DNA of 64,000 nt from a virus (taxonomy: Duplodnaviria; Caudoviricetes). The position numbers and the translations under genes were made by a program. Below are positions 6,780-55,798 of the stretch, in pieces. The stretch is from positions 1-64,000 of the IMG/VR virus record IMGVR_UViG_3300013800_000006, one strand, 5' to 3'. The first letter of the stretch is position 1. Each line of letters begins with the position of its first letter. Under the pieces are notes generated by a model. The model ran no database searches. It saw only the letters and a program-made list of their open reading frames with translations, and had not been told where the DNA came from.

Positions 6780-6783
6780 GAGA

Positions 6784-12529: not shown

Positions 12530-15500
12530 TTACCGCTCCAATTGTTTTGCAGCGGCCACTAAAGTTTTTATTTCATCTCGTGGAGATTTCATATTAACAA
12601 CCTTATTTCCAATATGTAAACGAACATCCACAAGTCCACTGGAGTCCACACTACCCGTATTTAGATTAGGAGTCAAGTATTGATTCATTCCAGCTAACGC
12701 CAAATTCGGGAAACCTTCAATAGCTCCACCAAATGCTCTAAATTGCAGTAATCCAGAATTAAGTGAATTTAAAAACTGTAAGCCATATCGTTCTACCATC
12801 GATTTACGAACGACATACTCACCCGGAGTTAGCATAGCAGGAACAGTATCTTCATTACCTGAACCGGGAACGATAGAACCTCGTAGTTTGCTCAAAATGG
12901 TAGAACCACCAGTAGCAAACCGACGAATTTGTGCTAATCCGCCTCGTGCAAACGCTTGTAAAACTTCAACTAATCCACCTTTATTATAACCACCTAATTT
13001 GTTCATAGATTGATTATGATTCACTAGATTAGTAATCACATCAATATTGACAGTCTTTTTATCATAACCCACTAACTGTTTAAGATAATCAATCGTTTGA
13101 GTTACTGCGGAATCTTCAGTTTTAACGGGCACAGTAGTAGGTGTAGTACTCAATAATGATTTAAGTTCTTCAACTTTAGAATAAGCTGTATTTAATGAAC
13201 TAAAATCAAATTGAACCGGAGTGCCATCAAGACTATTAGCAAAATCCGTAATCTTCTGTTTAAACTGATCTAATACACTAGAATCAATATGAACTCCTGC
13301 TGTCGCATCTGTTTGAAATTGAGTGACTTGATCTTGTAAATCTTTAAGTTTTGTTTCTACATCCGGGTTGATATAAAAACCAAACTCTTGTTTACGTACA
13401 TCAGCAAGATGGTTTTGAAACTCTGTGAGTTTATCCGAAACAGTCGTCAGGGTTTGTTCAGCTCCAACTGAAATGACTGGTACATCCGCAGCAGATTTTT
13501 TAGTTGTATCATACTGTTTAAAAGCTTCAGTAAGCGCCATAATTCCATTAGTGGTTTTATTAAAGTTGCCAATATCGACTATATCCGTTAAAGGTCCTTT
13601 ATTACTAAGATCATCACGAGTCTTAACCAATTGATCCAATTGAGCTTGAATTTGAGATCCACCCAAACCTTTACCAAAATTGTCAAACACTTTACCAGAC
13701 TGTTGACGTACATCATTCAATGTACTAATTACATTGGAAATAGATTCTTGATTGACTTTGAGTGTCAATTGGTTGTTATTAGTGGATGCCAACAACCCAT
13801 CTATATAATTGCTTACCGTGTCCATCCGCTGTAATTGATCTGGAGTAAATAAATCAATTTTAGCGGCATTGGCTTTATCTTGTAATGCACTCAAATTCGC
13901 CAACTCTTTTTGGACATTTTGCAGTGCAGCAACATCGGTTTGTAGATTTAATGGAGCAACATCTGTTTTGACTTCAACAGTTGGTAACTCCTTACTAGAC
14001 TCCGCAATTTGTTGGACAGTTGTACCAAAATCAGGTTGTTGCACTGTAGTAGGAATCGTGACCGGTTCAATCGTATTTTGCATGGCCGATTGAATTGCCG
14101 GTCCCGCTTGTTGCACTTCTTTTACAATTGTATCTGCATTAGTTTGTAATGAAACATCAATTGTTTTAATAGGCTGCTCCGCAACTGATTTAACATCTTT
14201 AATATCGGATGTTGTTATTTGTGCGGCATCACCTGTCCGTTTCAACGCATCGGTTACTTGATCTGACGAGCCAGTAAGTTCTTTAAGAGCAGGAGCCACT
14301 TCTTCTAAAACTTTACGGGTCTCAACTAATGCTTGAGTAGGTGCTTGACCTTTAGTACCGGATACACCAATTCTCAAATCCCGTAGAGGATCTGCTTTTG
14401 CCGCAATTTCAGTCAGTTTAACTCCAACAGTGTTAAAAGAATTAACCATCCCATCAATTTTAGTCGTATCTAAATTACCTAAAATCTCTCGCATCTTAGT
14501 TAATCGATCTATATCAACCTCTAAAACGTCCCCCACGCTTTTATCAATAAGTACACCACCTTTAGAATCAATACTTAAAGAATCACGAGCTTTACGAACT
14601 TTATCTAATTCATCATAAAATTGTTTTGGAATAGAAAGATCGGCTTTGGAATAAGTATCCATCAACTCATTAAGTCCTTTTTCATAACCGGAAAGAGCTT
14701 GAGTAATTGCTTCAAGCTGCTTTTGACCGTCACTTCCATCTTTAGTCACGTCTTTTAATGTAGTACCAACAGTAACACCTTCGGGTAACTGGTTAGTACT
14801 AATTGAATTAGTAAGTTTACTTAATTCTGTATAAGCAGCTTTTAACTGATTAACAGAATCCAATTGTTTTTGTGCACTCTCAGCATCTTGCTTATTACGT
14901 GATGATTGATCTCGTGCTTTTTCAAGTCCAATTTGCTGATTTTGGATCTTTTCCATATCCGCCAATGCTTGATCTGTATTTAAACCAATTGACAAAGGCT
15001 TTTCAAACATCCGATCCAATTCTAATTTCTTTTCAGCAATTGCCGAAAGCTTGGCAATTGCGTTGCCATCATCAAATTTAAGATCAATACTTTTGGCATT
15101 ATCTTTTTGTAACTGGATTAAACTAGTTGCTAAATCTTTCAAATCTTTTTCAACATTTGAAAGATCATTTGAAAATCCAGCTAACATATCTTCAAGACCT
15201 TTAGCAGTCTTTTCTAAAGTTGTTTGTTGGGCATCACCTGCTAATTTCAGCCGGTCACTAACATTCCCCATGCCTTTTTCAACAGTATTCAAACTATCTG
15301 TTACAAACTGTTTAGATTGTTGATCCCAAGGTTCTAGTGACAAGCCTTCAATTTTAGACATAGCTTGCTCATAAAGAGCTTTTGCTTTATCTAAATTGCC
15401 AGCCGTAGACTCTAAAGACGCTTGATCCGTAAGTTGCTGAATTTGTAATTTCTGTTTGGCTAACTTTTGAGCATCATTCAATCCAGAATTTTCAAGCTCA

Positions 15501-18500
15501 TCCCGTTTAGCATTAGCACGAGAAATAAAAGATTGCTTATCTTCTTCAATCTTTTTAATTTTATCAGCATTTGATTTATAAAGTTCTTTTACCCTATCCA
15601 GTGCTGACTGAACGGATTGGATACCTTTCAAATCCAAATCACGTCGTTTTGTTGCAAATTCTTGCTCCACTTTAATTCTATCGGCTGATCCAATTTTATA
15701 TAAAGGTAGGATAGAATTGTAATGAGCAGCAATTTCAGTTTTCTCTTTATTCAGACCCGAAGTAATAATTTTAGTTTTTTCATTCTCCAATCTAACTTTC
15801 GAGTCAAATAGTTTTTGATCAAATGTAATCGAGTACTGTAAAAAGACTCCAGTCTCCTTCTTTGCATCCGCTACAAAGTACCGAATTGCATCAGACCCAT
15901 ATTTGACCGCACCATTAATAGAAGTATTAAATCCTGAGTATTCAGCTTCTAATCGGACTGGAATCGTATAAACATTTTCAGTTACACTAGATGTTGCTCT
16001 AGTCAAATCATCAATTTGCCGTTCTAAGCTATTATGATAATAACTATACATCTGACTAGCAGTATCATTAGCAATTTTCTTTTGCTCACCTTGATATGAA
16101 GCAAATGTTGTAAATACATCTTTATTGACGGCTTTAACGTTTTTACCCCAACCTATCGCAGCACCCGATAATGTAGAAAATGTAGAATCTCCCAAGGCCG
16201 CCGTTGTGCTATAAGTTGCTTTAATTTGGGTCAGTGCAAATTCAGTTTGTTGTTGAATTGCTGAAATGCCCACATCCATTTTGGCTTTAGAAGCATTTGC
16301 AATTAAATCTCGATACTTGATAAATGCATCCGCATTATCCTTATAAATCTGCATGACCTTTTTCAAATCTTCCATACGAGTGGTCAATTCACTGACTTGA
16401 GTATCAGATGTTTTTATCATCTGTGCAACAAGGCGCTGCATTGCAGAGAATTGATTACTCAGAGTTACTTCTGCGGAAACTTTATTTGCTTCCGTTTTAA
16501 CTTGCTCCATCGTAGATTGTAGCGATTCGCGTACTTTAGCCAGTAACGCCGATTTATCAGCGGAATTTAAAGTAAAAATGCCTTGCATGAAGCTAGGCAT
16601 CCAACCGCGTAACCAATAAGGTGTATTAGCTTGATCCAAATCCTTTTCAATCTGCTTCATAACCGAATCAGTATCCACTACACCATGGGCTACTTTTATA
16701 GACGCAATGGCATCCGTAATAATAGAACTAACAGTCTTGCTAAATATAGCTGCTTTTTGTTTTATCGATTCAGTTTTAGCAAAAGAATTTTGGAGTTCAC
16801 TATCTAACGTTTCAATTAAAGTTGAAAAATCAAATTTAGTAGGTACTACATTAAAAATAGAACTCTCAACTTTTTGCAAGTTTTCTCTAGCCTGTTGTAT
16901 AGCATCCTCATCATTGCTGTTCTTAGCAACATCAAGAGCTGCTTCCGCAGCAACATACATTTGTTTCAATTGAAGCAATTGAGCATAATAAGCTTGAGTG
17001 TCCGACAATTCTTTTTGACTACTAGCTCTACTTGTATAGCTAGTATCTTGAACCACTCGCAAATGTTCCCGAAGCTTATTAATAAACTTTTCTTCAGCCG
17101 CAATCGCAGCGTCTTTATTCGCATACGTTGCAACTGCATTATTTAATACGGATACTGACTGAGCTAAATCATTAGCCACAGTCTTACTAGACAACATTTC
17201 TGTAGAAAATGTTGTCAAAACTTGTCCAGTTTCCGCAGTAATAACCTTTAATCCAGTAACTTGCCCAGTTAATGTGTCAAATGTCTTTTCAAGATTTAAT
17301 CCTTTTTTAACTTGATCAGAGGATTCATTATAACGAGTAACAACCTCATCCAATAACTTTTTAAATTTAGTAGTTTGTTCTTGAACACTCGACAAATTTA
17401 AAAGTTTACTTGTATCTAATTTAACATTCTGGTTATTAATCGCTTGCAAACTTACACCAACAGTTGCAATCTTTTTACCCAAATTTTCAAATTCTTTAGT
17501 ACTATTAACCGCAATAGCTGCTTGACGATCTAATTCAGCATTTACTGTGGTCATATTTTGCACTAAATAGAAAGTAACTCCTGCTAAAGTCGTTAATGCC
17601 GTAATAAACAAACCTATTGGAGTCGTAACCAGTGCTAAAGATAAAGCACGAAGTACAGCCACAAATCCAGCCAAACCACTACCCGCTTTAACCGCAGCCG
17701 CCCACGTTTCAGCTTGAGAAATAGCTAAAGCTTGACCTGATAAAGCGGCTGCAATCTGTGCATCTCTAACAACTAATAAAGCAGATGCAGTTTTAGTCAA
17801 TACAACCCATAATGTTTGTAGAATAGCTCCAAATTTAGCAGCCGGAACGAGCATCATGGACCATGCTAATGCAACCGTACCAATACCCAGTACCAATACG
17901 GCAAAGCCTGCTACCAAATTATCAATAATAGGTGTTAATGGTCCTAAAGCTTCACGAATTACTAAGATTTTACTAACAAAAGCAGTGGCGATTTCCACAA
18001 CAGGTTTAAGGGCCATACTTAAACTATGGCCGATTGACTCCCCTAATACCCCTAAGCTGTTACTTAGAATTTGCATCCGTCCCGCAAATGTCTTTTCCAT
18101 CATTGCAGCTAAACGAGCTGTAGATCCTTCCGCACCACTTAAATCAGATTCTAATTCTTTTAATTTATCAGAACCAATTTGCAATAGCGCGGCCATACCA
18201 GGACCGGCACGCTGACCAAACAGTTCTAATACTTCATTAGTTTGAACACCAGCTTCTTCAAACTGTTGTAACAAACTCACAAAACCAACAAACTTACCTT
18301 TAGAATCAGTAATTTGTAATCCAGCACCACCAATTCGGCGACTGAGTTCTTCCATGACTCGTGATTCTTCTTTAGTGGGATTCAATAACGCCTGGAATGA
18401 ACCACGTAAGGCTGTACCCGCTAAACTACCTCTTAAACCGGCATTGTGAAGTAAAGCAACGGCTGCCGCAGTATCTGTAATATCATTTTGCATTGTACCA

Positions 18501-21500
18501 GCAATGGAACCTACGTATTTAAACGAAGTTCCCATATCTTCCAGCGTTGCCGTTGTGCGAATAGCCGCCATCGACAAAATATCAGATGCTTTTCCAACAT
18601 CTTCTACAGCTAGTCTCTGACTAGACATCAACTGTACAACAGTATTAGTCGCGGAACCTAAATTGGTTTCGGCGGCGGTTGCAAGTTGTAGTACAGTGGG
18701 TAAAGCTGTTATCTGTTGTTCAACATCATAACCAGCTAATGCAAGTTGTTTAAAGCCATCTGCTGCTTGTTCAGCACCATAACGAGTTGTACTACCAATC
18801 GTTTCTGTCGTTTTTCCAAGATTTTCAATAGAAGCTTCAGTTTCTCCTGTAGCTCCTCTAATAAACGTTAAAGTATCTTCTAATTTACTAAATGCTTCTA
18901 ATCCTTTTTGAAACGGCTCAATCATAGCTTGCCCTAACATCTGCAAGCCCATCGTCATCATTTCCATATTTCTCATGCTGCCGACTAGATCATTTTCTAG
19001 TTTACGGACAGCCGAAGCAACTAAATCAGTTTTGTTTTGAACTTCTCCCAAACTACCCGCTAGTTTGGAAGCATTCTGATTTAGCATTAAAGTAAATAAG
19101 GATCTTAACCCTTTAGATAAAAACGCGGCTTTATCATCTGCTTCATGCATAGATGAAGCAATATCACCATAACCTTTTAAAACAGTAGAGCTTGGAGAAG
19201 ATCTATTAATAGTTTCCCGAAGTGTTGCTGACGCTTCCCGTGTGCGTTCTAATTCAATCCTTAAACTTTCTGCTCGATTACGAGCAGCTTCCAAAGATGC
19301 TGTATTAATAGAAAAACCCGCTTGAGCGGCGGACTCAGCTAAGTGTATAGACTTGGTAATTTCAATATATGACCTAGATAACTCATCTGCTTTAATTCGC
19401 AAATCATCCATGAAAGATTGTAATACTTCACGAGGCTTAGTTTCAAAATTGGTTCGCATCAAACCAATCTGAGTACCCGCCTTAATCAAATCATCTACTA
19501 AGGTTCGTATTGCAAAATCAAATGAAGTTCCAAAATTAGAGGTAGCACTAGCAGTACCTTGTAATGACTTTTCAGCTTGTTGGATTGCTTCATTTAACCG
19601 AATAACAGGTGCTACTGCGGTTTCTAATTCTTTTACTTTAGTACCAAGAGTTTCAACAGTGGCCGGAATGTTTTTAACATCTTGACCTAGTAAATTAAAT
19701 GCTTCATCAGCAGCTTTAGCCGCTTGTTGAAGTTGTGTAAGATCACCACCTGTTCCAACAGTCCTAATTGCAGTTTGCATAGCCGAATCCAAACGATTCC
19801 GTGCATTAGCAACTTCCGCAATTAAAGATTGACGTTCCGCAATTAACCGACTGGTTTCCGTTTTAATTTCTTTTAGAGTATCGGAACTAACACCCGATTG
19901 ACCCAAACGAGACAAAGATTGTTCAGAACTTTGAACCGCAGCATTTAACTGTGTAAACTGGTTTTTTAATTCTTGTAATCGACCGGTTTGCTGCAACAAA
20001 ATATCAAGAGAAGCACCACCTTTTTGCAATCCAACATTAATAGCCGCAGTCTGTTCCGTAACTTGTTTGCGTACTGCCTCTAATGCTGAAAGATTTACTG
20101 GACTAGAACTCATTCTCCGTTCAGCTTCAATCACCGATTGAATAGCGTCATAAACAGATTGTAAGTTCTTTTTATAATCACTATAAACATTTTGTAGTGA
20201 AGAAAAATCAGTTGCCGCAGTCGCAGCTTGTTTAAAAGCACCTGAGATTTTTATAATCTCAGCTTCATACTGTTTGGCAGCTTCTATCCCACTGGTCGGA
20301 ATTTGAGCTGACCCAATAGATTCAGCTAATCGACGGTATTCTGTATCAACCAATTTTGCACTAGATGCAAACCCAATTAAATTATTCTTAGAATCCGATA
20401 CACTTTGCTTTAATCGATTTAATCCATCAATTAAATCTTGTAATGAATTTACTTTAATATCACTGACACTAATTCCTTTTAATTGCTTAGGTAATTCAGC
20501 GCCAGTCCGGGCTAAATCCGAAAACTTTTTAATAGCAGAATCAATAATTTTACTATTTCTATTTAATACTTCATCAAAAATATCGAACTCTTTTACAATC
20601 GTAGCAACAGATGTATTAACCGAAGATGTAGATTTAATAAAACGGTCTTGGGCATCAAGTGCTTCTTGAAATCCGGTTTGTACAGATGTTACCCAAGTTT
20701 TGTAAATAATAGATTGATTAGATACTTCTTTTCCATTACGGATAATAGTATCCGTCAAATCGTTTAGCTTAGTAACAGTCTCCTGCCAACTTTGAACAGC
20801 TTGAGTTTGAGATTTACTAACTTTTCCAGTTGCAGACGCTGCATCTAAATTTGCTTTTTCAACAGAATAGATGGTATTAACATAATCCTGAACGATTTTT
20901 ATTAAAGATGAAAAATCGCTAAATGATTCTTTTACTCCATTAATAGAAACAGTTGCAATATTCCCTTTGACTGTAGTAACAAACTTTGTATAAATTTTAG
21001 TAAGATCGTTAACTAATTTAATAGGATCTTTAAGCCCATTTAACAAATGGGATAAGCTTGTCGCGATGGGATTAGTTAATTTAGATTCGCCTAACGATAA
21101 AATACCAGATCGAACGCGAACCAGTCCATCAACCACTAATTTTTCAAATGTCTCAGTCGCTTTAGCAGTTTGTACTAACGAAGCATCGATATGATCCGTT
21201 CTAATCTTGGCAATTTCAGAGTTTAGATTTTGAAATTGTCTGGATAATTGTAATACACGAGATTGAGCAGCACTGAGTTCCAAACTCAGTTGAGAACCAA
21301 AAACTTGACTGCCATCTTCTCGTTTTGAAAGGTCATATAACCCTTTCAACTTTAATGTAAGCTGTTCTAGTGATTGTTCTAATAATTTAGCAGTGGTTTC
21401 AGTTTTAGAAAAGCCACCAAAAGTTTCAGGCTGTTTCCCAGCCGTTGCAAATACATTATTTAAACCTTGTACAGCAACAGCCAATCGATTAACTTTTGTT

Positions 21501-22624
21501 GTTTCCGATACTAACGCTGTATCAATTTCTTTAAGACTGGTCTCAGCACTTCGTAGAACTTGTAGTTCTTGCCCAAGTCTATTAACTGCTGTGATTTGAC
21601 CCGTGAGTGAATTAGTACCATCTATCAAATATTTATCAACAATTTCCAATACTTTTTGCAAAGTATATAAATTGTTTACAGATTCACGAGTTCCAGAATT
21701 AAAAAGTTTTCCAAACGACGAACTATCAGTGGTCAGTCTTTCAAAAATTGGCGCAAGATGATTTAAACCTTTTAATAATGAATCTAAAGCAGCCGTATCG
21801 CTACCAAAAGCTTGCTTTAATGAAGTTTCCCACTGTGTTGTATCATAGGTTAATAATTTAACAACTCGACCAATTGCCGCAAATGATTCTTCGATAACTC
21901 CTAATCGATCTTGTTGTAAATCTTTTAACTCTAATGGCTGTATTGTGATCTTAGCATATTGACTAGCACTTTTAAAAATATCAGTCACAATACTAGTCAA
22001 TTGGCGTTGCGCGTTTTCTGCCCTTAACTCAGTAAACGGAACAACAATTGCATCATTAATTGCATCTTTAAAAGGCTGCTTGCGACGACTGACAGCAGCC
22101 TTAGCCGCTTCCAATACCGCACCAATTTGGGCATCAATAATCGCCGGATCAAGACCATTAATAATGCTATCTTTAACATTTCGCAATGCAGCAACAAGTG
22201 TATCAAATACAGGTACTGATTTACCTCTAGAAGCAGTTGCTAGTGTTGATCCAACTTCAAGTAACGCTTTATCGATAACTTCTACATTAAGAATAGTAGT
22301 TTGAGATGCATCCGATAACGATTTAGCGTACTGCTGTGTCCAATTGCTAATACCATTTTGCAATTGGACAAAATAGTCTTTAATTTCCGGGGTAGATTTT
22401 CCAACTTGTCCAGCTAAATTGGAAATACTTTTGGCAGCAAGATTGGCTTGCTCAATCAGTTTATCACCGCCAATTCCGGCTTCTACTGATTTTCGCAAGC
22501 CATCTAAAACCTTCTGAATCGAGCTAGCAACTGCTGCGAATGCAGAACTAGTACTAGAAAGATTAGTAGCTTGAGCACTAAGATTGATTAAGACATCAAC
22601 GACTGTTTGTTTTACATCAGCCAT
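12530..22624 (-). CDS. Tail tape measure protein (3364 aa from ATG 22624)
   Basis: Alpha-helical Ala/Gln/Ser/Lys-rich; PhageMin_Tail/TP901-like core (TTRYGAEQAADGFKQLALAG...LHNAGLRGSLAGTALRG); C-terminal FATGG...DTVPAMLTPGEYVV; follows tail chaperone; GGAG 5 nt before ATG. Confidence 0.93.
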   Translation of the reverse strand: MADVKQTVVDVLINLSAQATNLSSTSSAFAAVASSIQKVLDGLRKSVEAGIGGDKLIEQANLAAKSISNLAGQVGKSTPEIKDYFVQLQNGISNWTQQYAKSLSDASQTTILNVEVIDKALLEVGSTLATASRGKSVPVFDTLVAALRNVKDSIINGLDPAIIDAQIGAVLEAAKAAVSRRKQPFKDAINDAIVVPFTELRAENAQRQLTSIVTDIFKSASQYAKITIQPLELKDLQQDRLGVIEESFAAIGRVVKLLTYDTTQWETSLKQAFGSDTAALDSLLKGLNHLAPIFERLTTDSSSFGKLFNSGTRESVNNLYTLQKVLEIVDKYLIDGTNSLTGQITAVNRLGQELQVLRSAETSLKEIDTALVSETTKVNRLAVAVQGLNNVFATAGKQPETFGGFSKTETTAKLLEQSLEQLTLKLKGLYDLSKREDGSQVFGSQLSLELSAAQSRVLQLSRQFQNLNSEIAKIRTDHIDASLVQTAKATETFEKLVVDGLVRVRSGILSLGESKLTNPIATSLSHLLNGLKDPIKLVNDLTKIYTKFVTTVKGNIATVSINGVKESFSDFSSLIKIVQDYVNTIYSVEKANLDAASATGKVSKSQTQAVQSWQETVTKLNDLTDTIIRNGKEVSNQSIIYKTWVTSVQTGFQEALDAQDRFIKSTSSVNTSVATIVKEFDIFDEVLNRNSKIIDSAIKKFSDLARTGAELPKQLKGISVSDIKVNSLQDLIDGLNRLKQSVSDSKNNLIGFASSAKLVDTEYRRLAESIGSAQIPTSGIEAAKQYEAEIIKISGAFKQAATAATDFSSLQNVYSDYKKNLQSVYDAIQSVIEAERRMSSSPVNLSALEAVRKQVTEQTAAINVGLQKGGASLDILLQQTGRLQELKNQFTQLNAAVQSSEQSLSRLGQSGVSSDTLKEIKTETSRLIAERQSLIAEVANARNRLDSAMQTAIRTVGTGGDLTQLQQAAKAADEAFNLLGQDVKNIPATVETLGTKVKELETAVAPVIRLNEAIQQAEKSLQGTASATSNFGTSFDFAIRTLVDDLIKAGTQIGLMRTNFETKPREVLQSFMDDLRIKADELSRSYIEITKSIHLAESAAQAGFSINTASLEAARNRAESLRIELERTREASATLRETINRSSPSSTVLKGYGDIASSMHEADDKAAFLSKGLRSLFTLMLNQNASKLAGSLGEVQNKTDLVASAVRKLENDLVGSMRNMEMMTMGLQMLGQAMIEPFQKGLEAFSKLEDTLTFIRGATGETEASIENLGKTTETIGSTTRYGAEQAADGFKQLALAGYDVEQQITALPTVLQLATAAETNLGSATNTVVQLMSSQRLAVEDVGKASDILSMAAIRTTATLEDMGTSFKYVGSIAGTMQNDITDTAAAVALLHNAGLRGSLAGTALRGSFQALLNPTKEESRVMEELSRRIGGAGLQITDSKGKFVGFVSLLQQFEEAGVQTNEVLELFGQRAGPGMAALLQIGSDKLKELESDLSGAEGSTARLAAMMEKTFAGRMQILSNSLGVLGESIGHSLSMALKPVVEIATAFVSKILVIREALGPLTPIIDNLVAGFAVLVLGIGTVALAWSMMLVPAAKFGAILQTLWVVLTKTASALLVVRDAQIAAALSGQALAISQAETWAAAVKAGSGLAGFVAVLRALSLALVTTPIGLFITALTTLAGVTFYLVQNMTTVNAELDRQAAIAVNSTKEFENLGKKIATVGVSLQAINNQNVKLDTSKLLNLSSVQEQTTKFKKLLDEVVTRYNESSDQVKKGLNLEKTFDTLTGQVTGLKVITAETGQVLTTFSTEMLSSKTVANDLAQSVSVLNNAVATYANKDAAIAAEEKFINKLREHLRVVQDTSYTSRASSQKELSDTQAYYAQLLQLKQMYVAAEAALDVAKNSNDEDAIQQARENLQKVESSIFNVVPTKFDFSTLIETLDSELQNSFAKTESIKQKAAIFSKTVSSIITDAIASIKVAHGVVDTDSVMKQIEKDLDQANTPYWLRGWMPSFMQGIFTLNSADKSALLAKVRESLQSTMEQVKTEANKVSAEVTLSNQFSAMQRLVAQMIKTSDTQVSELTTRMEDLKKVMQIYKDNADAFIKYRDLIANASKAKMDVGISAIQQQTEFALTQIKATYSTTAALGDSTFSTLSGAAIGWGKNVKAVNKDVFTTFASYQGEQKKIANDTASQMYSYYHNSLERQIDDLTRATSSVTENVYTIPVRLEAEYSGFNTSINGAVKYGSDAIRYFVADAKKETGVFLQYSITFDQKLFDSKVRLENEKTKIITSGLNKEKTEIAAHYNSILPLYKIGSADRIKVEQEFATKRRDLDLKGIQSVQSALDRVKELYKSNADKIKKIEEDKQSFISRANAKRDELENSGLNDAQKLAKQKLQIQQLTDQASLESTAGNLDKAKALYEQAMSKIEGLSLEPWDQQSKQFVTDSLNTVEKGMGNVSDRLKLAGDAQQTTLEKTAKGLEDMLAGFSNDLSNVEKDLKDLATSLIQLQKDNAKSIDLKFDDGNAIAKLSAIAEKKLELDRMFEKPLSIGLNTDQALADMEKIQNQQIGLEKARDQSSRNKQDAESAQKQLDSVNQLKAAYTELSKLTNSISTNQLPEGVTVGTTLKDVTKDGSDGQKQLEAITQALSGYEKGLNELMDTYSKADLSIPKQFYDELDKVRKARDSLSIDSKGGVLIDKSVGDVLEVDIDRLTKMREILGNLDTTKIDGMVNSFNTVGVKLTEIAAKADPLRDLRIGVSGTKGQAPTQALVETRKVLEEVAPALKELTGSSDQVTDALKRTGDAAQITTSDIKDVKSVAEQPIKTIDVSLQTNADTIVKEVQQAGPAIQSAMQNTIEPVTIPTTVQQPDFGTTVQQIAESSKELPTVEVKTDVAPLNLQTDVAALQNVQKELANLSALQDKANAAKIDLFTPDQLQRMDTVSNYIDGLLASTNNNQLTLKVNQESISNVISTLNDVRQQSGKVFDNFGKGLGGSQIQAQLDQLVKTRDDLSNKGPLTDIVDIGNFNKTTNGIMALTEAFKQYDTTKKSAADVPVISVGAEQTLTTVSDKLTEFQNHLADVRKQEFGFYINPDVETKLKDLQDQVTQFQTDATAGVHIDSSVLDQFKQKITDFANSLDGTPVQFDFSSLNTAYSKVEELKSLLSTTPTTVPVKTEDSAVTQTIDYLKQLVGYDKKTVNIDVITNLVNHNQSMNKLGGYNKGGLVEVLQAFARGGLAQIRRFATGGSTILSKLRGSIVPGSGNEDTVPAMLTPGEYVVRKSMVERYGLQFLNSLNSGLLQFRAFGGAIEGFPNLALAGMNQYLTPNLNTGSVDSSGLVDVRLHIGNKVVNMKSPRDEIKTLVAAAKQLER

Positions 22625-23333
22625 TATCTCCAACCCCGTAAGTCTTTAGCCAATCGTAACCACTCTTTACCAACTTCTTTACCCGATGCTTTAGGTTTCG
22701 GTTGAGTCTCTTTAAGCAATCGATCAACCGTTTTCTTATCAGCATGAGTCCCAACCCATACTGTATATAAATTATCGGCTCTAGCCAACTGCTTTCTTTT
22801 TGAGCCTTCCCTAACAAACACACCAATTTGGTTGAGGGTGTAGTTTTGAACATCCGACCAAGTATGCCCGCATTCGATTAAGAATGCAAGGGTACTCGCT
22901 ATAGTCGCTGGTTCGTCCCTGCCAGAGCTACTATTTTCTCCCCCAACCTGTTGAAGTTTTTTACTAAACCCTCTTGACTTGCTAAATTTAAGTCAAGACA
23001 AGCAATAAATAAATCAACAGCAACATTTAATGGCAACCGTTGTACATCAAATTCATCTAAACCAGACATTTCCGATAAAATACCAGGAGCTTGAGCCATA
23101 ATAACCGAAACTAAAGTAATAATGGCAGGCACATTATCTCTTGATAAATCTTTTAAAGTTAAACCTTCCTCAACAAGCAAACTACTAATCCCACTCAATT
23201 GTTTCAACACTCTCGCAACCGTTGAAACAGTTAAAGGCATAAGCCTTAATGTTGTTGTACCAATTTTAAAATTGGTTTCTGGAAACAACGCCAGCCAATC
23301 TTCACTATTTAGGGTTACTTTGTTACCGGCCAT
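22624..23333 (-). CDS. Tail assembly chaperone long form (G-T) via -1 ribosomal frameshift
   Basis: Slippery A-AAA-AAC at 22956..22962; the -1 frame reads ...LAFLIECGHTWSDVQNYTLNQIGVFVREG... and joins track ORF 22624..22821. Confidence 0.85.
22899..23333 (-). CDS. Tail assembly chaperone short form (G, 144 aa)
   Basis: Between tail tube and tape measure; slippery site near its 3' end. Confidence 0.85.
   Translation of the reverse strand: MAGNKVTLNSEDWLALFPETNFKIGTTTLRLMPLTVSTVARVLKQLSGISSLLVEEGLTLKDLSRDNVPAIITLVSVIMAQAPGILSEMSGLDEFDVQRLPLNVAVDLFIACLDLNLASQEGLVKNFNRLGEKIVALAGTNQRL
22956..22962 (-). other. -1 programmed frameshift slippery heptamer AAAAAAC
   Basis: Reads GTA AAA AAC in the G frame; X XXY YYZ phase is correct. 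Confidence 0.85.
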
Positions 23334-44155: not shown

Positions 44156-44626
44156 TCAACGATAATCCAAATAATCTGGGTTGACCACGCTTTTCCCAAC
44201 AGCCTTCCCCCACGCCAACAATTGACCTTCATCGTATCGCACCGGGGGGTTGCGACCTCCACCCAATACCTGTTTAGGTAATCCTAACTTCCTCACCCAG
44301 TGATAGACGGTCATCGTGGTAATATCAAACATTCGACACACTTGCCGAATCGTTAAAAGTGTCCCGTTATGACAGTCTCGCCATTGACTATCATCTACCT
44401 CCATAAACTCAACCCGGTTATGAACCGTTTTCTTCACCTTAGTAGCGAGCACTGCCGCAAGGGGAGGTGCCTTTTCAAAATCCTGATCCTCTAATATCCT
44501 CTGCTCCACCCGGATCGGAGCGGCTGGCTTCTGATTCAAAATCTGTCTCAAATCACGTCTAATCATCATGGCACCTGAATATATTTGTGTACTTGAATAT
44601 TGAGTCGGTATCCAAACGTCTGACAA
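44156..44626 (-). CDS. Helix-turn-helix (excisionase/MerR-like) DNA-binding protein
   Basis: LLTIRQVCRMFDITTMTVYHWVRKLGLP...VRYD. Confidence 0.7.
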   Translation of the reverse strand: MSDVWIPTQYSSTQIYSGAMMIRRDLRQILNQKPAAPIRVEQRILEDQDFEKAPPLAAVLATKVKKTVHNRVEFMEVDDSQWRDCHNGTLLTIRQVCRMFDITTMTVYHWVRKLGLPKQVLGGGRNPPVRYDEGQLLAWGKAVGKSVVNPDYLDYR

Positions 44627-45192
44627 CTATGAATAGCCGCTTTTAAGTTTTCTGCGTAATGATCATCCCAGCAAGGTCCTACCCAAATGTTAGAGTTACG
44701 TGGCTTCGCCACACCTACGGGCAACCCATCGGTATCGACCTTATCTGCTTCTAATACATATTTCCAACAAAAAGCCTTCTCCGAAATAATGGGTTGGACT
44801 TTCCCCGTTTTAGGTGAACATACAATCATACACCGTTCTAAGAATGGAATAATTTGAGGATGACACACGGCACCACTGGTTTCTATCTGAATCTTCCAAT
44901 TAAATCCAAGAGTGTTGATCAACTGACCCACTTGTCCTTGACGTAACGGTTCCCCTCCCGTAATGACCAATAACCGATGACTCAACGCTTGTAAGTGTTC
45001 CACCAATTCGTCACAGTCAACCCGGTCCCCCGATGCGTACTCCGTATCACAAAATCCACAACGCAGTACACAACCGCTCAATCGAAGAAATACAGCCGGG
45101 TATCCGGTTAGTGGACCTTCTCCCTGAATGGTCTCAAATAAAGAATTGACAATCAGACCGTCTTCCATCCCCACAATCGGTTGATTATTCAT
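44566..45192 (-). CDS. queE: 7-carboxy-7-deazaguanine synthase (radical SAM)
   Basis: SLFETIQGEG, AVFLRLSGCVLRCGFCDT (CX3CX2C), VITGGEPL, IETSG, IVCSPK, QVHKY. Confidence 0.9.
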   Translation of the reverse strand: MNNQPIVGMEDGLIVNSLFETIQGEGPLTGYPAVFLRLSGCVLRCGFCDTEYASGDRVDCDELVEHLQALSHRLLVITGGEPLRQGQVGQLINTLGFNWKIQIETSGAVCHPQIIPFLERCMIVCSPKTGKVQPIISEKAFCWKYVLEADKVDTDGLPVGVAKPRNSNIWVGPCWDDHYAENLKAAIHSCQTFGYRLNIQVHKYIQVP

Positions 45193-45677
45193 ATTGAGAC
45201 CTCTGCAGAACTACTCTCAGTTTCTTCCCAGCGTACAGCCACACAAAATAGCCCACTCGGCAACCAGCCGTTCAGCCAAGTCATTAGGCAGATGCTCAAG
45301 TTTTCAGAGGTCGGTTCATTGTCCATCAATACGAGTCCATCTATCACTTCAGCGAATGCTCCGTCTTGTTCAGTTTCAAATAGTTCAAATGGTCCCACCA
45401 GTTTTGATGTGTATGGGGCTTGTTTGAGGAGTAAAGGCACTAATGGATCATGCCGGTCTAAGATCATTTTATGATCTAGTAATTCCAAGCAGGTTTTAAA
45501 GCGTTTGAGATGATTAAAATCTAATACCATTCCATTGACAAGTGACCCGGAACAGCCTACAGAAATGGCAATACGCCCACTGTGTCCGTGTAAATGCCGA
45601 CACTGGCACGGGGGCACTTGCTGATTCCACAAGCGATGCCCGTATACTAGATTAAATACTTTGGTGATAGATAACAT
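45189..45677 (-). CDS. queD: 6-carboxy-5,6,7,8-tetrahydropterin synthase
   Basis: YGHRL, CRHLHGHS, GMVLDF, LDH, PTSENL, EET motifs; GGAG before ATG 45677. Confidence 0.88.
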   Translation of the reverse strand: MLSITKVFNLVYGHRLWNQQVPPCQCRHLHGHSGRIAISVGCSGSLVNGMVLDFNHLKRFKTCLELLDHKMILDRHDPLVPLLLKQAPYTSKLVGPFELFETEQDGAFAEVIDGLVLMDNEPTSENLSICLMTWLNGWLPSGLFCVAVRWEETESSSAEVSI

Positions 45678-45706
45678 CAATGAAAACTCCATGGGTGGAA
45701 GTCGTT

Positions 45707-45735: not shown

Positions 45736-45856
45736 GCAAGGCGTTAGTAGAAATATTATAAAAATCTTGGAAATGGAAATGGTGAAATAAAAGAGGCCAT
45801 GACGCCTGCGGCGTCATTCTACCACTCGGTTTAACGGTTGAAGCGAGTACCCCGTG

Positions 45857-46058
45857 TTTGATTTTATGAGAAGTATAGTGATTATAAAGTTAAAGTTATG
45901 GAAGGCGTAGTAGGTGGAAATGAAAATGAAAATGGCACCATTTATTTTAAATCAAACTCAAAATCGAAATCAAACTCAAAATGGAATCCGGCTCTAGTAT
46001 TAAGTATTTGATTTTATGGGAATTATAGTGATTATAAAGTTATGGTTATGGAAGGCGT
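45857..46058 (+). repeat. 52-bp direct repeat x2 (45857..45908, 46007..46058) around hexamer microrepeats
   Basis: 48/52 identity, offset 150 bp; GAAAAT and AAATCG/AAACTC hexamers between the copies. Confidence 0.85.
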
Positions 46059-46484
46059 GGTGAGTTGAGATTGGGAGGAGGGTTTGCAGTATTACTAACC
46101 GTTAGTGTCAGCGATGTTTGAAAAACGTCACCCAGCCGTACCCATACAGTGCATTATTCGATGATCATCGAAGCATGTGATTGATTTTTAAAGTAAATTA
46201 ATCAAACAACATGTGACAATCTTTGTCACTGTAACAATAACGATACATAAAATATTATTCATTAGTACAATCAATCACTTATGTCATTACATAAATATCC
46301 GTGTTATGTAATTACACTATTTAATACGATATGAATTAATGAATTAAAAAACTTTTTAAATTAATTACTCAATAACAACAAACACTTAGCTTAATATTGT
46401 GGTTGCTTAGGTTAAGCAATGGTAAGCTTGGCACTAACACTGCATTATCATACGCAACGCAACACAAGTTAAACTGAAAAGGGG

Positions 46485-46619
46485 ATGGCATTGAAAGCTG
46501 CAATCGTGTTCTGTATTTTAGTTATTACAAGCGTATATGCGATGGATTGTTTTAAAGATATGATGGTTGGCATTGTTGACCACCATCATCAACAAATTGA
46601 ACTGGCAAGCAACCAGTAA
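46485..46619 (+). CDS. Small hydrophobic peptide (44 aa), not in the ORF track
   Basis: MALKAAIVFCILVITSVYAMDCFKDMMVGIVDHHHQQIELASNQ; AAGGGG before ATG; stop abuts the RBS of the next gene. Confidence 0.45.
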   Translation: MALKAAIVFCILVITSVYAMDCFKDMMVGIVDHHHQQIELASNQ

Positions 46620-46630
46620 AGGTGACGACA

Positions 46631-46945
46631 ATGAAACTTAACATAGTGAGTATCTCAAGGCAGTATAATCAGGCGATAACCTTACCGGCTAAAGAGGTTC
46701 GTTATGTCCGAGGGTTGCTTCCGTTAGGGAAAATAGTAGCTTCCCGGCAGGGCTATATCGGTAATACCATGAATGGCTGGAGTGCGTTTGAGGTTATTGT
46801 TAAAGATAAAAACGGGTTGTGGGTTTGTTACCCACAACCAACACAAATAGGTGATTATGCATCATATCGCCTGTTGAGTGACTCACCAGAATTTGTCAAG
46901 AAAACAGCAAGTAATTTGCTTACAATAAGTAAGCAAATTAGATAG
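46631..46945 (+). CDS. Hypothetical early protein
   Basis: AGGTG RBS before ATG 46631; followed by repeat copy 1. Confidence 0.65.
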   Translation: MKLNIVSISRQYNQAITLPAKEVRYVRGLLPLGKIVASRQGYIGNTMNGWSAFEVIVKDKNGLWVCYPQPTQIGDYASYRLLSDSPEFVKKTASNLLTISKQIR

Positions 46946-46951
46946 TAGACA

Positions 46952-47028
46952 AGCCATGGGTGGCTTACCCTATTAGTGCTTATTCTAAGCACTAATAGGA
47001 GCGTACTAGAGTCCGCTTAGTAGACTCT
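46952..47028 (+). repeat. Three-hairpin intergenic element, copy 1
   Basis: AGCC-ATGGGT-GGCT; CCTATTAGTGCTTA-TTC-TAAGCACTAATAGG; AGAGTC-CGCTTAGTA-GACTCT. Confidence 0.95.
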
Positions 47029-47051
47029 AAACAAACTGGGAGTTGAAGAAC

Positions 47052-47468
47052 ATGAGCATGAAACTATACGCATTGTGTCAAAATTCTTACACATTCGGAC
47101 AGACTGGTGTTGGTTGCCATGTGGCGACCAGCGACGAGGAAATCGTGGCATCGGCGACGCTGTGGGATAACAATAGGATATGGGAGGTTTACGAGGAAAA
47201 AGAGAAGTTCATGCGTGTGCTTCAACCCACCCTGCACGTACTGGCTGGTACTCAATGGGTTGCCATGCCCATTGAGCCTACCGTCCATGGGTTCGACGGG
47301 ATGGTAAAAATCCTACGGGATAGGACGCCATCGCAGGCATACATTCAAGCCGGTGAAGGCGTGCGGTTTGTGTTCAGTGATACCGTACCAGTGTTGGCAA
47401 AGGGTCATACTGACTATGACCCGGCAAACCTTAACCACCAGCGCGCCCTATTAGGAGGTAAGGCTTGA
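47052..47468 (+). CDS. Hypothetical early protein (cassette 1)
   Basis: GGGAG RBS; bounded by repeat copies 1 and 2. Confidence 0.65.
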   Translation: MSMKLYALCQNSYTFGQTGVGCHVATSDEEIVASATLWDNNRIWEVYEEKEKFMRVLQPTLHVLAGTQWVAMPIEPTVHGFDGMVKILRDRTPSQAYIQAGEGVRFVFSDTVPVLAKGHTDYDPANLNHQRALLGGKA

Positions 47469-47473
47469 TCTAC

Positions 47474-47553
47474 AGCCATGGATGGCTTACCCTATTAGTG
47501 CTTATTCTAAGCACTAATAGGAGCGTATCGAGTACCCGCTTAGTAGGTACTCT
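47474..47553 (+). repeat. Three-hairpin intergenic element, copy 2
   Basis: AGCC-ATGGAT-GGCT; same 14-bp stem as copy 1; GAGTACC-CGCTTAGTA-GGTACTC. Confidence 0.95.
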
Positions 47554-47574
47554 CAATAAAGTGGAGTGAATACG

Positions 47575-48339
47575 ATGAATGCTAATCAAAAAGCCGCTGT
47601 TACTATGATGCTTTCCATCATGGCGGAAGGGACTTGCCAAGAGTTTGGCAAATATAGTAAGGATAGTGTCGAGTACTTCACCGCCAAGCTAGAACAAGTG
47701 CAATCAGGCAGGATAGGACATGGTGGAAACCCCCACGGGTATTTCATCATCGGGTTGTCCCCTAGTAGCAAGCGTGGACAGGAAAATGCCGCCCGTCAAT
47801 TCCGCTTTGCCTTGAGCAAGGGAATGACTAACAAAGCGCACCTTGCTTGCCGTGGCTTGGGTGACACCGGCACCGAGTCAGCAATCAATGCTGGTGCGTT
47901 CTTCAGCTATCCAAAACAGAATAGCCGTCTTGGCGACACGGCCATGCGCCGAGTCGCGCATGGCATCGCATCCGATGCCCGGAAGGGAGAAGATGTAGGA
48001 CGGAAAACCAGTGCACTATTTCTCGCGCTAACAGACGCGGACGCTGCGGAAGCGGCACTAGCTTTTATCCGTAAGGGTGCGGAAAAAATCCGCACGGCGC
48101 TAAATATTGAGCATGACACGTGGTTGGATCAACTCATAGAGTCCATCCCCCAAATGGGGGAACAGGAAACACAAGACGAAAACTTGAATCACTGGATCAA
48201 TGGTATCTTAGCAGAGCTGCCAGACATCAAACCCGATGATGAACGGATGCTCGTCGAATCCGTTAAGCGGGTATCTGCTAAAAAGAACCCCAAACCCGTC
48301 AAAAGTAAGCTAACCTTGGAGAAAACTAAGGCAGCATAA
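47575..48339 (+). CDS. Hypothetical early protein (cassette 2, ~254 aa)
   Basis: GGAG RBS; visibly GC-richer than neighbours; basic C-terminus. Confidence 0.7.
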   Translation: MNANQKAAVTMMLSIMAEGTCQEFGKYSKDSVEYFTAKLEQVQSGRIGHGGNPHGYFIIGLSPSSKRGQENAARQFRFALSKGMTNKAHLACRGLGDTGTESAINAGAFFSYPKQNSRLGDTAMRRVAHGIASDARKGEDVGRKTSALFLALTDADAAEAALAFIRKGAEKIRTALNIEHDTWLDQLIESIPQMGEQETQDENLNHWINGILAELPDIKPDDERMLVESVKRVSAKKNPKPVKSKLTLEKTKAA

Positions 48340-48346
48340 TAGAACA

Positions 48347-48425
48347 AGCCATGGATGGCTTACCTATTAATGCTTAACATAAGCACTAATAGGAGCGTAT
48401 CGAGTACCCGCTTAGTAGGTACTCT
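48347..48425 (+). repeat. Three-hairpin intergenic element, copy 3
   Basis: AGCC-ATGGAT-GGCT; CCTATTAATGCTTA-ACA-TAAGCACTAATAGG; GAGTACC-CGCTTAGTA-GGTACTC. Confidence 0.95.
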
Positions 48426-48446
48426 CATGGTTAGGAGTTTAAGATT

Positions 48447-48725
48447 ATGTTTTACTATTTTTATGTAGAACAAGAAGACAAACGTATTGCCTTTTGCGTA
48501 TCTGAGACGGAACTTGATGTTGGTTATATAGTACCACTGGACAAAGAAATAATAATTGCCCAAGGGAATCTACCTGATTCTAATGAATACCTCATTAAGT
48601 CAAAATGCTTTAAAAAAACATTAGAGCTAGCATGTCAGCTAGCGGGTTACTCACTAGAGCCTTATAATATAACCCCATTAGAGTATGTGAGCACAGAAGA
48701 ATTTGTCTATTGGTTTAACTCTTAA
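48447..48725 (+). CDS. Hypothetical early protein (cassette 3)
   Basis: AGGAG RBS; AT-rich; bounded by copies 3 and 4. Confidence 0.65.
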   Translation: MFYYFYVEQEDKRIAFCVSETELDVGYIVPLDKEIIIAQGNLPDSNEYLIKSKCFKKTLELACQLAGYSLEPYNITPLEYVSTEEFVYWFNS

Positions 48726-48732
48726 TAGAATT

Positions 48733-48809
48733 AGCCATGGACGGCTTACCCTATAATTGCTTAGATTAAGCAATTATAGGAGCGTACTAGAGTCCGCTTA
48801 GTAGACTCT
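48733..48809 (+). repeat. Three-hairpin intergenic element, copy 4
   Basis: AGCC-ATGGAC-GGCT; CCTATAATTGCTTA-GAT-TAAGCAATTATAGG (compensatory changes); AGAGTC-CGCTTAGTA-GACTCT. Confidence 0.95.
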
Positions 48810-48833
48810 TACCAAAAACGGGAGTTTAAAAAC

Positions 48834-49028
48834 ATGTTACAAATTGATCCAACTCGCCATTATCCTACATTTTTAGTGATCGTAAAGGATTATTTTGACC
48901 ACATTCAAGTCAAAGAGTCTAATAAGTATTTTACAAACGAGAAGCAGGCTAGAAACTATGCACAAAATAATACGCGGTTCCTGCGTGCTGGTACATACTC
49001 AAAGGGACAAGTGCATGTATTAGGTTAA
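48834..49028 (+). CDS. Hypothetical early protein (cassette 4, 64 aa)
   Basis: GGGAG RBS; bounded by copies 4 and 5. Confidence 0.6.
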   Translation: MLQIDPTRHYPTFLVIVKDYFDHIQVKESNKYFTNEKQARNYAQNNTRFLRAGTYSKGQVHVLG

Positions 49029-49035
49029 TCTACCA

Positions 49036-49114
49036 AGCCAAGGATGGCGTACCTATAATCGCTTAATCTAAGCGCTTATAGGAGCGTATCGAGTACCCGC
49101 TTAGTAGGTACTCT
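49036..49114 (+). repeat. Three-hairpin intergenic element, copy 5
   Basis: GCC-AAGGAT-GGC; CCTATAATCGCTTA-ATC-TAAGCGCTTATAGG; GAGTACC-CGCTTAGTA-GGTACTC. Confidence 0.95.
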
Positions 49115-49134
49115 CATGGTTAGGAAATAATACT

Positions 49135-49473
49135 ATGAACAATCAATATTATTTGTGTGGTAAAGTCTATTTTGAAGCCATCAAACCGATGTTTAAACAG
49201 ATGTTGATTTATATCCCAAGTCATTGGGACGATTTTTGTAACACCTTTTATATCTCTATCCCTGATGATGAACCAACACAAAACTATTTAGAAGGATGGC
49301 AAGGATTAAGAGAGGAAATCCTTACTAAATTGTTTAGATTGAATATCCTCGTGTACCAGAATGAAATCTATGAAATCTTCCGTAGATTAGGCGAACAATC
49401 ATTACTTTTAATGTTAATCCATCAACACCATGCTTATTGTAAGCAGGTAGGTGACACCATTTTAGAATTATAA
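49135..49473 (+). CDS. Hypothetical early protein (112 aa)
   Basis: AGGA RBS after copy 5. Confidence 0.65.
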   Translation: MNNQYYLCGKVYFEAIKPMFKQMLIYIPSHWDDFCNTFYISIPDDEPTQNYLEGWQGLREEILTKLFRLNILVYQNEIYEIFRRLGEQSLLLMLIHQHHAYCKQVGDTILEL

Positions 49474-49507
49474 AACTGTATCATTTATGATACTATGATA
49501 CATAGTA

Positions 49508-49640
49508 GTGACATCGCTTTAAACGCCCCAAATCGGCGATTTTAGCCACCCATCCCATAACCCACTACCCAACCATGGGTAGTGGGTTTAAATGTCACCA
49601 CGGCCCGTTTTGGTGGCTTAAAACGCAACCGGGATGGGCA
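49508..49640. repeat. GC-rich structured intergenic element related to 55684..55798
   Basis: AAATCG-G-CGATTT (49530..49542) followed by TAGCCACCC; 12-bp hairpin AACCCACTACCC/GGGTAGTGGGTT. Confidence 0.7.
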
Positions 49641-49723
49641 ACGCACACTCAAAATGTGGCGGCATCCCTCTGCCCCGCGTACAGACCGGAATTTGGGTAA
49701 AAACCCGATTCAAATCTCAGTCT

Positions 49724-55683: not shown

Positions 55684-55798
55684 CGTCTCATAACCCCCCA
55701 AATCGTCGATTTTAGCCACCCGACCCACTACCCGCTACCCATGCCGCCCCTTGCCCCATCCATGGCCCAAAACAAGCGTTTTGGGCCATTGTGAGACG
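55684..55798 (+). repeat. MITE/REP-like palindromic element with imperfect terminal inverted repeats
   Basis: Ends CGTCTCATAA...TTGTGAGACG; AAATCG-T-CGATTT; 12-bp hairpin ATGGCCCAAAAC-AAGC-GTTTTGGGCCAT. Confidence 0.7.

Follow-up and report, generated by a model that had tools for sequence, protein, structure and literature searches.

A repeated structured element at the gene junctions of a cassette operon in a large wastewater phage

How can a phage take a new gene into an operon and have it expressed at once? Genes for host takeover and anti-defence have their fastest turnover in the accessory regions of phages. To our knowledge, the plugging in and immediate expression of new phage genes are understood only for a few systems, the promoter-early stem-loop elements (PeSLs) of T4 and integrons. 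The question is raised by a plus-strand operon in the virus record IMGVR_UViG_3300013800_000006, of which we analysed the first 64 kb (64,000 nt, referred to below as the window); the full IMG/VR record is 75.9 kb long and is rated ~51% complete. The operon holds seven small open reading frames (ORFs) between ~46.4 and ~49.6 kb, and each of the five gaps between its last six genes carries one copy of a repeat of ~78 nt, the junction element (Table 1).

A preliminary description of the window had interpreted this arrangement as an array of single-gene cassettes punctuated by three hairpins, forming an undescribed RNA or single-stranded DNA (ssDNA) module that processes or regulates each gene or serves as a handle for recombination. 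We found that the element does consist of three modules, the third of which is a pseudoknot and not a plain hairpin. New here are this pseudoknot, the recognition of the apex of the second hairpin as the core of the element, comparative evidence for recombination at the elements, and a link to Candidatus Competibacter through clustered regularly interspaced short palindromic repeats (CRISPR). Our best explanation, to which we give about an even chance of being right, is that the repeats are transcribed junction RNAs that would control or insulate each cistron post-transcriptionally and would also be substrates for homologous recombination.

Table 1. Features of the operon and its junction elements (positions in the window; H, hairpin; S and L, stems and loops of the pseudoknot)
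Feature	Position	Strand	Remarks
Lone H2 apex TTGCTTA-GGT-TAAGCAA	46403..46419	+	5' of first operon gene
Sigma54-like motif TGGCAC-TAACA-CTGCAT (GG-N10-GC)	46429..46444	+	context, outside the repeat
Gene F2	46485..46619	+	44-aa hydrophobic peptide; first operon gene; kept in all relatives
Gene A	46631..46945	+	104 aa, family F5; in L011/L022; absent in G001, L014, L029, L030
Junction element copy 1 (c1)	46952..47028	+	H1, H2, pseudoknot; S2 type AGAGUC/GACUCU
Gene B	47052..47468	+	138 aa, family F6; GC 51.6%; absent from L011/L022
Junction element copy 2 (c2)	47474..47552	+	S2 type GAGTACC/GGTACTC
Copy 2, H1	47474-47487	+	GCC-AUGGAU-GGC
Copy 2, H2	47491-47521	+	14 bp, loop UUC
Copy 2, pseudoknot S1	47522-47525 with 47537-47540	+	
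Copy 2, pseudoknot S2	47530-47536 with 47546-47552	+	
Copy 2, L3	47541-47545	+	UAGUA
Gene C	47575..48339	+	254 aa, family F0; anchor gene, in every relative; GC 50.6%
Junction element copy 3 (c3, w3)	48347..48424	+	S2 type GAGTACC/GGTACTC; H2 chimeric
Gene D	48447..48725	+	92 aa, family F23; GC 34.4%
Junction element copy 4 (c4)	48733..48809	+	S2 type AGAGUC/GACUCU; H2 variant TAATT/AATTA
Gene E (E64)	48834..49028	+	64 aa, family F1; GC 36.4%; kept in most relatives
Junction element copy 5 (c5)	49036..49113	+	S2 type GAGTACC/GGTACTC
Gene F	49135..49473	+	112 aa, family F4; GC 32.7%; last gene
Apex motif GCTTATTGTAAGC	49432-49444	+	inside 3' end of gene F
Stem-loop CCCACTACCCA/TGGGTAGTGGG then TTT	49560..49589	+	direct sequence reading; likely end of operon

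The junction element and its fold

All five copies were confirmed at the positions first described, on the plus strand and co-oriented with the genes, and the core pattern of the element occurs five times forward and never in reverse in the whole 75.9-kb record. Each copy begins 5–7 nt after a stop codon (linkers TAGACA, TCTAC, TAGAACA, TAGAATT and TCTACCA) and ends 21–24 nt before the next ATG. Within this gap a GGAG-type ribosome site lies 8–12 nt from the end of the pseudoknot, in agreement with the placement originally proposed. The enclosed genes are indeed unrelated: the six cassette genes form separate blastp families, and their GC content spans 32.7%–51.6% (window mean 38.6%), with B and C standing apart from D, E and F. 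None of the operon genes has a Pfam or PHROG match. The product of gene C is predicted to be all-helical and without a known fold (AlphaFold model, pLDDT 69), and the model had no Foldseek match in the PDB. We assume that the operon is expressed early. Its likely end, the stem-loop 3' of gene F, was not listed by the terminator scan (only three T follow the stem). Twenty distinct element copies are now known. Two pattern scans of IMG/VR found a single other contig with the element, G001, which has five copies; a pattern match in L006 turned out to be a chance occurrence inside a gene.

To assess the fold, 16 copies from five genomes were aligned with MAFFT. Of the cells predicted to pair, 95.9% do so, compared with 89.1% after shuffling and 26–44% when the partners were slid. 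Seven pairs have changed on both sides, of which four belong to hairpin 2 (H2) and the other three to hairpin 3; hairpin 1 (H1) has no such pair. Single-sequence RNA folds gave z-scores of −3.7 to −5.4. The covariation seen in the five copies is thus upheld when more sequences are aligned. H1, a short hairpin of the form (A/G)GCC-A-N-GGA-N-GGC(U/C), presents an A-N-G-G-A-N hexaloop on a stem of 3–5 bp. The sequence GCC-ANGGAN-GGC is found in 19 of the 20 copies (the exception, c1, has AUGGGU), and the hairpin is kept in all clades, including as GGCC-AUGGAU-GGCC and GGGC-AUGGAC-GCCC. H2 has the 14-bp stem with compensatory changes that had been reported, one internal mismatch each in c3 and c5, and a free 3-nt loop (TTC, TTC, ACA, GAT and ATC in c1 to c5).

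The third module had been described as a hairpin with an invariant loop on two different stems. The loop, CGCTTAGTA, is indeed carried by two stem types among the five copies, and the module as a whole is an H-type pseudoknot. The loop begins with CGCU, the complement of the four bases directly 3' of H2 (AGCG), and the two strings pair as helix S1; the hairpin stem is S2. In relatives, grouped below by percent identity, S1 appears as AGCG/CGCU, as CGCC/GGCG in the 63–65% clade and as GGUG/CACC in the 53–55% clade, the last being accompanied in L019, L026 and L027 by three further versions of S2. S2 itself takes at least eight forms (GAGUACC, GAGUAUC, AGAGUC, AGAAUC, GAGUGCU, CUAGG, ACUGG and GCGCGG). 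The helices follow each other in ABab order, both show compensatory change, and the loops are able to span them (S1 4 bp, L1 3–4 nt, L2 0 nt, S2 5–7 bp, L3 5 nt), as expected for this type of fold. In a 10-sequence alignment, 100% of the cells in both helices are paired, compared with 29–46% when slid, and double changes affect two of four S1 pairs and four of seven S2 pairs (at most one in the slid controls). None of ~50 unrelated hairpins with 9-nt loops from the same loci had a comparable strict 4-bp match. Variation of the stems contrasts with conservation of L3, the loop of H1 and the apex of H2.

Read on the plus strand, S2 contains three independent G.U pairs and no A.C pair. Because of the H-type pseudoknot and these sense-strand wobble pairs, RNA is favoured over DNA, and we favour an element that would act as sense-strand RNA. 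Of the two forms offered by the preliminary description, RNA is therefore preferred to ssDNA. An alternative pairing of the hairpin-3 loop with the 3' arm of H2 was rejected, as it is not conserved in distant clades. In c1 and c4 (type-A copies; 47004–47022 and 48785–48803), the string UACUA, made up of L1 and one further base, can pair along its whole length with L3 (UAGUA), and this pairing makes an alternative 5-bp hairpin that excludes the pseudoknot; the type-B copies lack it.

The element does appear to be undescribed. Rfam 15 gave no match at the gathering threshold over the window and none on the elements at E ≤ 10 over 46300–49700, a search that included preQ1 riboswitches and pistol, twister and hepatitis delta virus-like ribozymes, and the copies do not have the shape of an intrinsic terminator. 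A preQ1-type riboswitch, suggested by adjoining QueD/QueE-like genes, was rejected because there is no Rfam match, the helix proportions are different and the ribosome site is free. We likewise rejected a self-cleaving ribozyme, which had no Rfam match either; no loop nucleotide is conserved across all clades.

Besides the pseudoknot, the preliminary description had missed that the H2 apex is the true core of the element, present also outside the five copies, and that the modules appear to be older than their combination (see below). The universal core is (T)GCTTA-NNN-TAAGC(A), in which five apical pairs, GCUUA/UAAGC, are fixed. With at most one mismatch this motif occurs eight times in the window, all within 46405–49444, compared with 1.7 occurrences expected. 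All apex copies of the 53–55% clade read GTTTA-N3-4-TAAAC, a swap of C-G to U-A. The promoter-proximal apex is kept in all relatives, each with its clade's own apex version, and is always found 10 nt upstream of a sigma54-like motif. That motif, the sole exact match in the 64 kb, is conserved as TGGCA(C/T)-N5-(C/G)TGCAT, with a variable spacer sequence, in every relative including the most distant clade, and is a possible operon promoter. We found no sigma54/rpoN or bacterial enhancer-binding protein gene in the phage sequence searched (about half of the genome). Reading TGCTTA as a T4 MotA box was rejected by eye, as there is no −10 element at the required spacing. Also conserved 5' of the operon, at 46290–46340, are inverted TTACATAA/TTATGTAA motifs (ATTACGTAAT in relatives) that look like an operator.

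Relatives, cassette exchange and a host lead

Relatives were found through homologues of gene C (254 aa) in ENA and Logan assemblies; IMG/VR contributed only G001, and the JGI metagenomes only two loci. They comprise a group at 83–88% identity that includes three ~148-kb contigs (L011–L013, L022, L023, L029 and L030), L014 at 66%, a clade at 63–65% (L015–L018 and L021) and the most distant clade, at 53–55% (L019, L020 and L026–L028). The sample of one relative belongs to a global sewage survey.

Gene order differs among these genomes by whole gene-plus-element units. With E for the junction element and E64 for gene E, the window reads F2-A-E-B-E-C-E-D-E-E64-E-F, G001 reads F2-E-B-E-C-E-E64-E-G-E-F, and L011/L022 read F2-A-E-C-E-E64-E-F. 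In L014 the order is F2-B-E-C-(truncated E)-new gene, and in L030 it is F2-E-B-E-C-E-(92-aa ORF)-E-E64-E-F. The 92-aa ORF of L030 was placed in the slot of gene D by position and size, and only in L030 is this slot filled. Judging from these orders, the pattern of presence of A and B cannot be a single event and would need more than one. The elements themselves include chimeras. The H2 of c3 joins a TTAAT-type 5' arm to an ACTAA-type 3' arm, which results in an A.C mismatch; L029_1672 and L030_2305 have the same chimeric arms, and r4 has the reciprocal combination. Further chimeras are the hairpin-3 arms (S2) of both L023 copies and one L016 hairpin. One 148-kb assembly stops immediately 3' of an element.

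Recombination at the elements, as the proposed handle had implied, is shown by comparison, that is, at the level of sequence, since gene order is not invariant among relatives and copies are chimeric. For this, ordinary homologous recombination between ~80-nt direct repeats of 85–100% identity would be enough. PF00589 tyrosine recombinases and PF01797 Y1 transposases are both absent from the 75.9-kb record (G000) and the 20.4-kb record of G001 (~51% of the genome). In L014, a shortened element at 6772–6825 consists of H1 and the 5' arm of H2 followed directly by a ribosome site, and appears to be a natural deletion derivative. A close relative is represented by two independent assemblies (~147.9 kb each) that break in or beside the array (the end of L013, at 7188, and the start of L012). 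Such breaks would be expected if the repeats, or heterogeneity of cassette content in the population, confuse assembly.

The distant clades suggest how the element was put together. There, an apex hairpin, a middle hairpin and a pseudoknot stand 5' of gene C, H1 followed by the apex hairpin stands 3' of it, and the other gaps hold the apex hairpin alone, on a GC-rich lower stem. Since the modules occur separately in these relatives, all three appear to be older than the composite element, and the H1-H2-pseudoknot composite probably arose by exchange at the shared H2 apex and then spread to all junctions. Its parents would have been the trailer of gene C (H1 and H2) and the leader of gene C (H2 and pseudoknot).

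The only match to a bacterial genome was a CRISPR array in a metagenome-assembled genome (MAG) of Candidatus Competibacter sp. (L024, 5009–5548; JBAOHI010000026.1). Two of the seven spacers between its eight repeats match gene C, over 32/35 nt in G001, 23/23 in L019 and 28/29 in L014. We therefore propose Candidatus Competibacter as a provisional host. The MAG has a local GC content of 65%, which fits oddly with the 39% of the phage. It encodes both CsrA and RpoN, and thereby permits explanations that involve CsrA as well as sigma54. Weak matches of 32–45 nt were also seen in three other genomes of the same family. We know of no isolated phages of Candidatus Competibacter, and a full-text literature search found none described.

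What the element may do

According to the explanation we prefer, the repeat would be a cis-acting structured RNA on the sense strand of a polycistronic mRNA, through which all cassettes would share one self-contained type of 3' end and 5' leader and would have their ribosome sites insulated. At least one RNA-binding factor would recognize fixed surfaces on H1 (its loop), on H2 (its apex) and on the pseudoknot, and such factors would set the translation or stability of each cistron. As the comparison of relatives shows, homologous recombination between the modules, which are also ~80-nt direct repeats, removes, adds and exchanges single genes. The small H-type pseudoknot shortly 5' of the ribosome site recalls leader pseudoknot operators such as those of T4 gene 32 mRNA and ribosomal-protein operons, and here too the ancestral place would be the leader of one conserved gene, gene C. 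Unlike those operators, with which it has no sequence similarity, it has been copied, within the clade of the window, before six unrelated genes. A bolder version, which we regard as a real but minor possibility, is that the elements represent a new class of cassette linker RNA. This would be a three-part protein platform (CsrA-type hexaloop, fixed-apex hairpin and pseudoknot) that places inserted genes under one shared post-transcriptional programme and whose apex and loops are preferred crossovers for trading accessory genes, making it an integrase-free analogue, at the RNA level, of integron cassettes.

Several observations weigh against a role as RNA. The antisense strand folds equally well, and covariation among copies that recombine with each other does not represent independent events. 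H2 on its own gives no strand signal, because A.C mismatches occur in three copies and a G.U pair in one. Its signature, fixed pairs with a free loop or spacer between them, is the one expected from a DNA-binding protein that acts as a dimer, and the apex copy just 5' of the promoter-like motif may never be transcribed. Nor is there a candidate for the trans-acting factor, the cassette genes being without matches and gene C without a fold match. The main tension is thus that the fixed pairs, free centre and promoter-proximal copy of the H2 apex would also suit a DNA-binding dimer. In such a DNA-level signal, a dimeric regulator would bind the apex TGCTTA-NNN-TAAGCA as its operator or roadblock site, or the apex would form a hairpin or cruciform that a polymerase or an activator recognizes, with one copy serving the promoter and others the junctions; the stoperators of mycobacteriophages and the hairpin promoters of N4 are comparable. 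Invariant half-sites around a free 3-nt centre in ~40 copies are consistent with this, as is the constant distance from the sigma54-like motif in every clade. In addition, the promoter copy follows the changes of the junction copies (the L019 clade has GTTTA/TAAAC), and an HTH_17/MerR-like gene lies nearby (44156–44626, minus strand). We nevertheless consider a signal in DNA unlikely. The outer 9 bp of H2 covary, for which a duplex-DNA site has no need, the neighbouring pseudoknot has no DNA rationale, and orientation and spacing are tied to translation signals. A sigma70-like promoter at 46231–46258 could moreover put the first apex copy inside the 5' untranslated region. As for hairpin promoters, an N4-like phage had been our first guess from an ORF of 3367 aa. 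This was rejected because the ORF encodes a tape measure protein and not a virion RNA polymerase, which leaves the phage without an N4-type polymerase, and the H2 loop is unconstrained, unlike the specific 3-nt purine loop that N4 promoters carry on a hairpin of 5–7 bp.

H1 raises the further question of whether the host protein CsrA reads these transcripts. [quoted passage not shown] Like the CsrA/RsmA hairpins of CsrB, RsmZ and mRNA leaders, H1 places GGA, flanked by C-A...G, in a 6-nt loop above a short stem and recurs several times per transcript; it fits both the CsrB repeats and the SELEX consensus, and it is conserved in all clades. Host CsrA could control the cassettes through the five or six H1 copies together with the GGA-containing ribosome sites, or the abundant transcript could be a sponge like CsrB or RsmZ, and the candidate host MAG does encode CsrA. 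Here, however, H1 is only one of three modules and the likeness is one of sequence. Within the close clade H1 shows no covariation, and since the copies share a common ancestor, their match amounts to a single event. The host assignment itself rests on the CRISPR spacers of one MAG with a discordant GC content, and the half of the phage genome searched has no CsrA gene. We know of no phage transcript that acts as a CsrA sponge. As an explanation of its own this is possible but doubtful; CsrA binding is also compatible with the junction RNA we prefer, as its H1 component.

Like the early RNase III sites of T7 and T3, the element is a structured RNA found once per junction between co-transcribed small genes. 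RNase III cleavage could release monocistronic mRNAs that are protected at the 3' end by a hairpin (H1-H2) and carry a pseudoknot at the 5' end, and since H2 adjoins S1 without a linker, a stacked helix of ~25 bp could form from H2, S1 and S2. We regard this as quite improbable, because the element lacks the irregular ~20-bp helix with an internal loop or bulge that is typical of T7 sites, H2 has only 6–11 bp in distant clades, and the fixed apex sequence and the conserved H1 loop would be left unexplained. Loops with sequence-specific conservation and a pseudoknot also set the element apart from the T7 and T3 sites. The genomic logic is that of PeSLs, which in T4-type phages combine a sigma70 early promoter with a stem-loop terminator (PMC2839356). 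In both cases a short intergenic motif lies between the stop of an ORFan and the next ribosome site in a plastic region, where recombination between copies explains gene insertion, deletion and replacement between close relatives (Arbiol et al., 2010, PMC2839356; Comeau et al., 2014, PMC4122927). Copies of our element likewise flank indels or replacements in G001, L011/L022, L014, L029 and L030. Yet a promoter plus terminator or attenuator before each ORFan is very improbable here. A promoter and terminator scan found no sigma70 promoter or intrinsic terminator inside any of the five copies, and by eye there is no −35/−10 pair at 16–18 nt spacing, as the preliminary description had said; the stable stem-loops that are present are not followed by a T-run (U-tract in RNA). 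The element differs from PeSLs also in its conserved hexaloop hairpin, fixed-apex hairpin and H-type pseudoknot, of which the H1 loop and the pseudoknot are without counterpart there, and the carrier is siphovirus-like, not a T4-like myovirus.

Finally, the elements could be sites of site-specific recombination or transposition, like integron attC sites or the repetitive extragenic palindromes (REPs) mobilized by REP-associated tyrosine transposases, with actively mobile cassettes. As with attC, imperfect palindromes bound single promoterless genes in a co-oriented array, with a folded site at each boundary, and crossovers fall in the hairpin apex or loop. We think this the most improbable of the alternatives. 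None of the RYYYAAC/GTTRRRY cores (R''/R') of attC was seen when the five copies and the flanking sequences were read directly, again as first described; the nearest string, GTTAGGA in c3 and c5, has the wrong last position and lies in the ribosome-site region. The conserved features, including the pseudoknot, are on the coding-sense strand. REPs and bacterial interspersed mosaic elements, which are imperfect palindromes headed by GTAG, differ from the element, which has no conserved GTAG/CTAC flank. Neither an integrase nor a Y1 transposase is encoded in the two records searched, and direct repeats of this length and identity suffice for homologous recombination.

The carrier phage and the meaning of the locus

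The carrier is a large (~148 kb), siphovirus-like virus from sewage or sludge. Its minus strand from 1 to 45.7 kb encodes tail genes, the major capsid protein, the portal and the large terminase, as well as an intein-rich NrdJ, SbcC, primase and dUTPase. Pfam and PHROG searches identified the ORF at 12530–22633 (minus strand) as the 3367-aa tape measure protein. Tail length follows tape measure length at ~0.15 nm per residue, which gives a tail of roughly 500 nm. Neither blastn of the array nor tblastn of the capsid protein against phages found known relatives closer than 30%, and a search with the terminase in a protein atlas gave no host clue. Directly adjoining the operon, at 44566–45692 (minus strand), is a radical-SAM and PTPS pair (QueE/QueD-like), which suggests 7-deazaguanine modification of the phage DNA. 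The divergent non-coding region holds tandem 68-nt repeats (45854–45921 and 46004–46071) that are 85% identical and are present in three copies in L011. Each unit closes with ATGGAAGGCGT, at which a tiny ORF starts, and the units may be promoters or leaderless genes that were duplicated. Another repeat family, rich in GC and with the common sequence CCAAATCG(G/T)CGATTTTAGCCACCC, is placed at the ends of two plus-strand gene blocks (49527–49552 and 55690–55716), and an H1-like GCCATGGATGGG is found on the minus strand at 55755–55766, in its 55.7-kb copy.

Next to PeSLs and integron cassettes, the locus represents a second, structurally distinct solution to the accommodation of new genes: a compact RNA motif, supported by covariation and not in Rfam, at every cassette boundary. 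The motif is small enough for direct tests, and gains and losses of genes can be compared 'before and after' in natural pairs of relatives. In addition, the locus is an entry point to an uncultured lineage of ~148-kb wastewater phages that is linked by CRISPR spacers to Candidatus Competibacter, a process-relevant organism.

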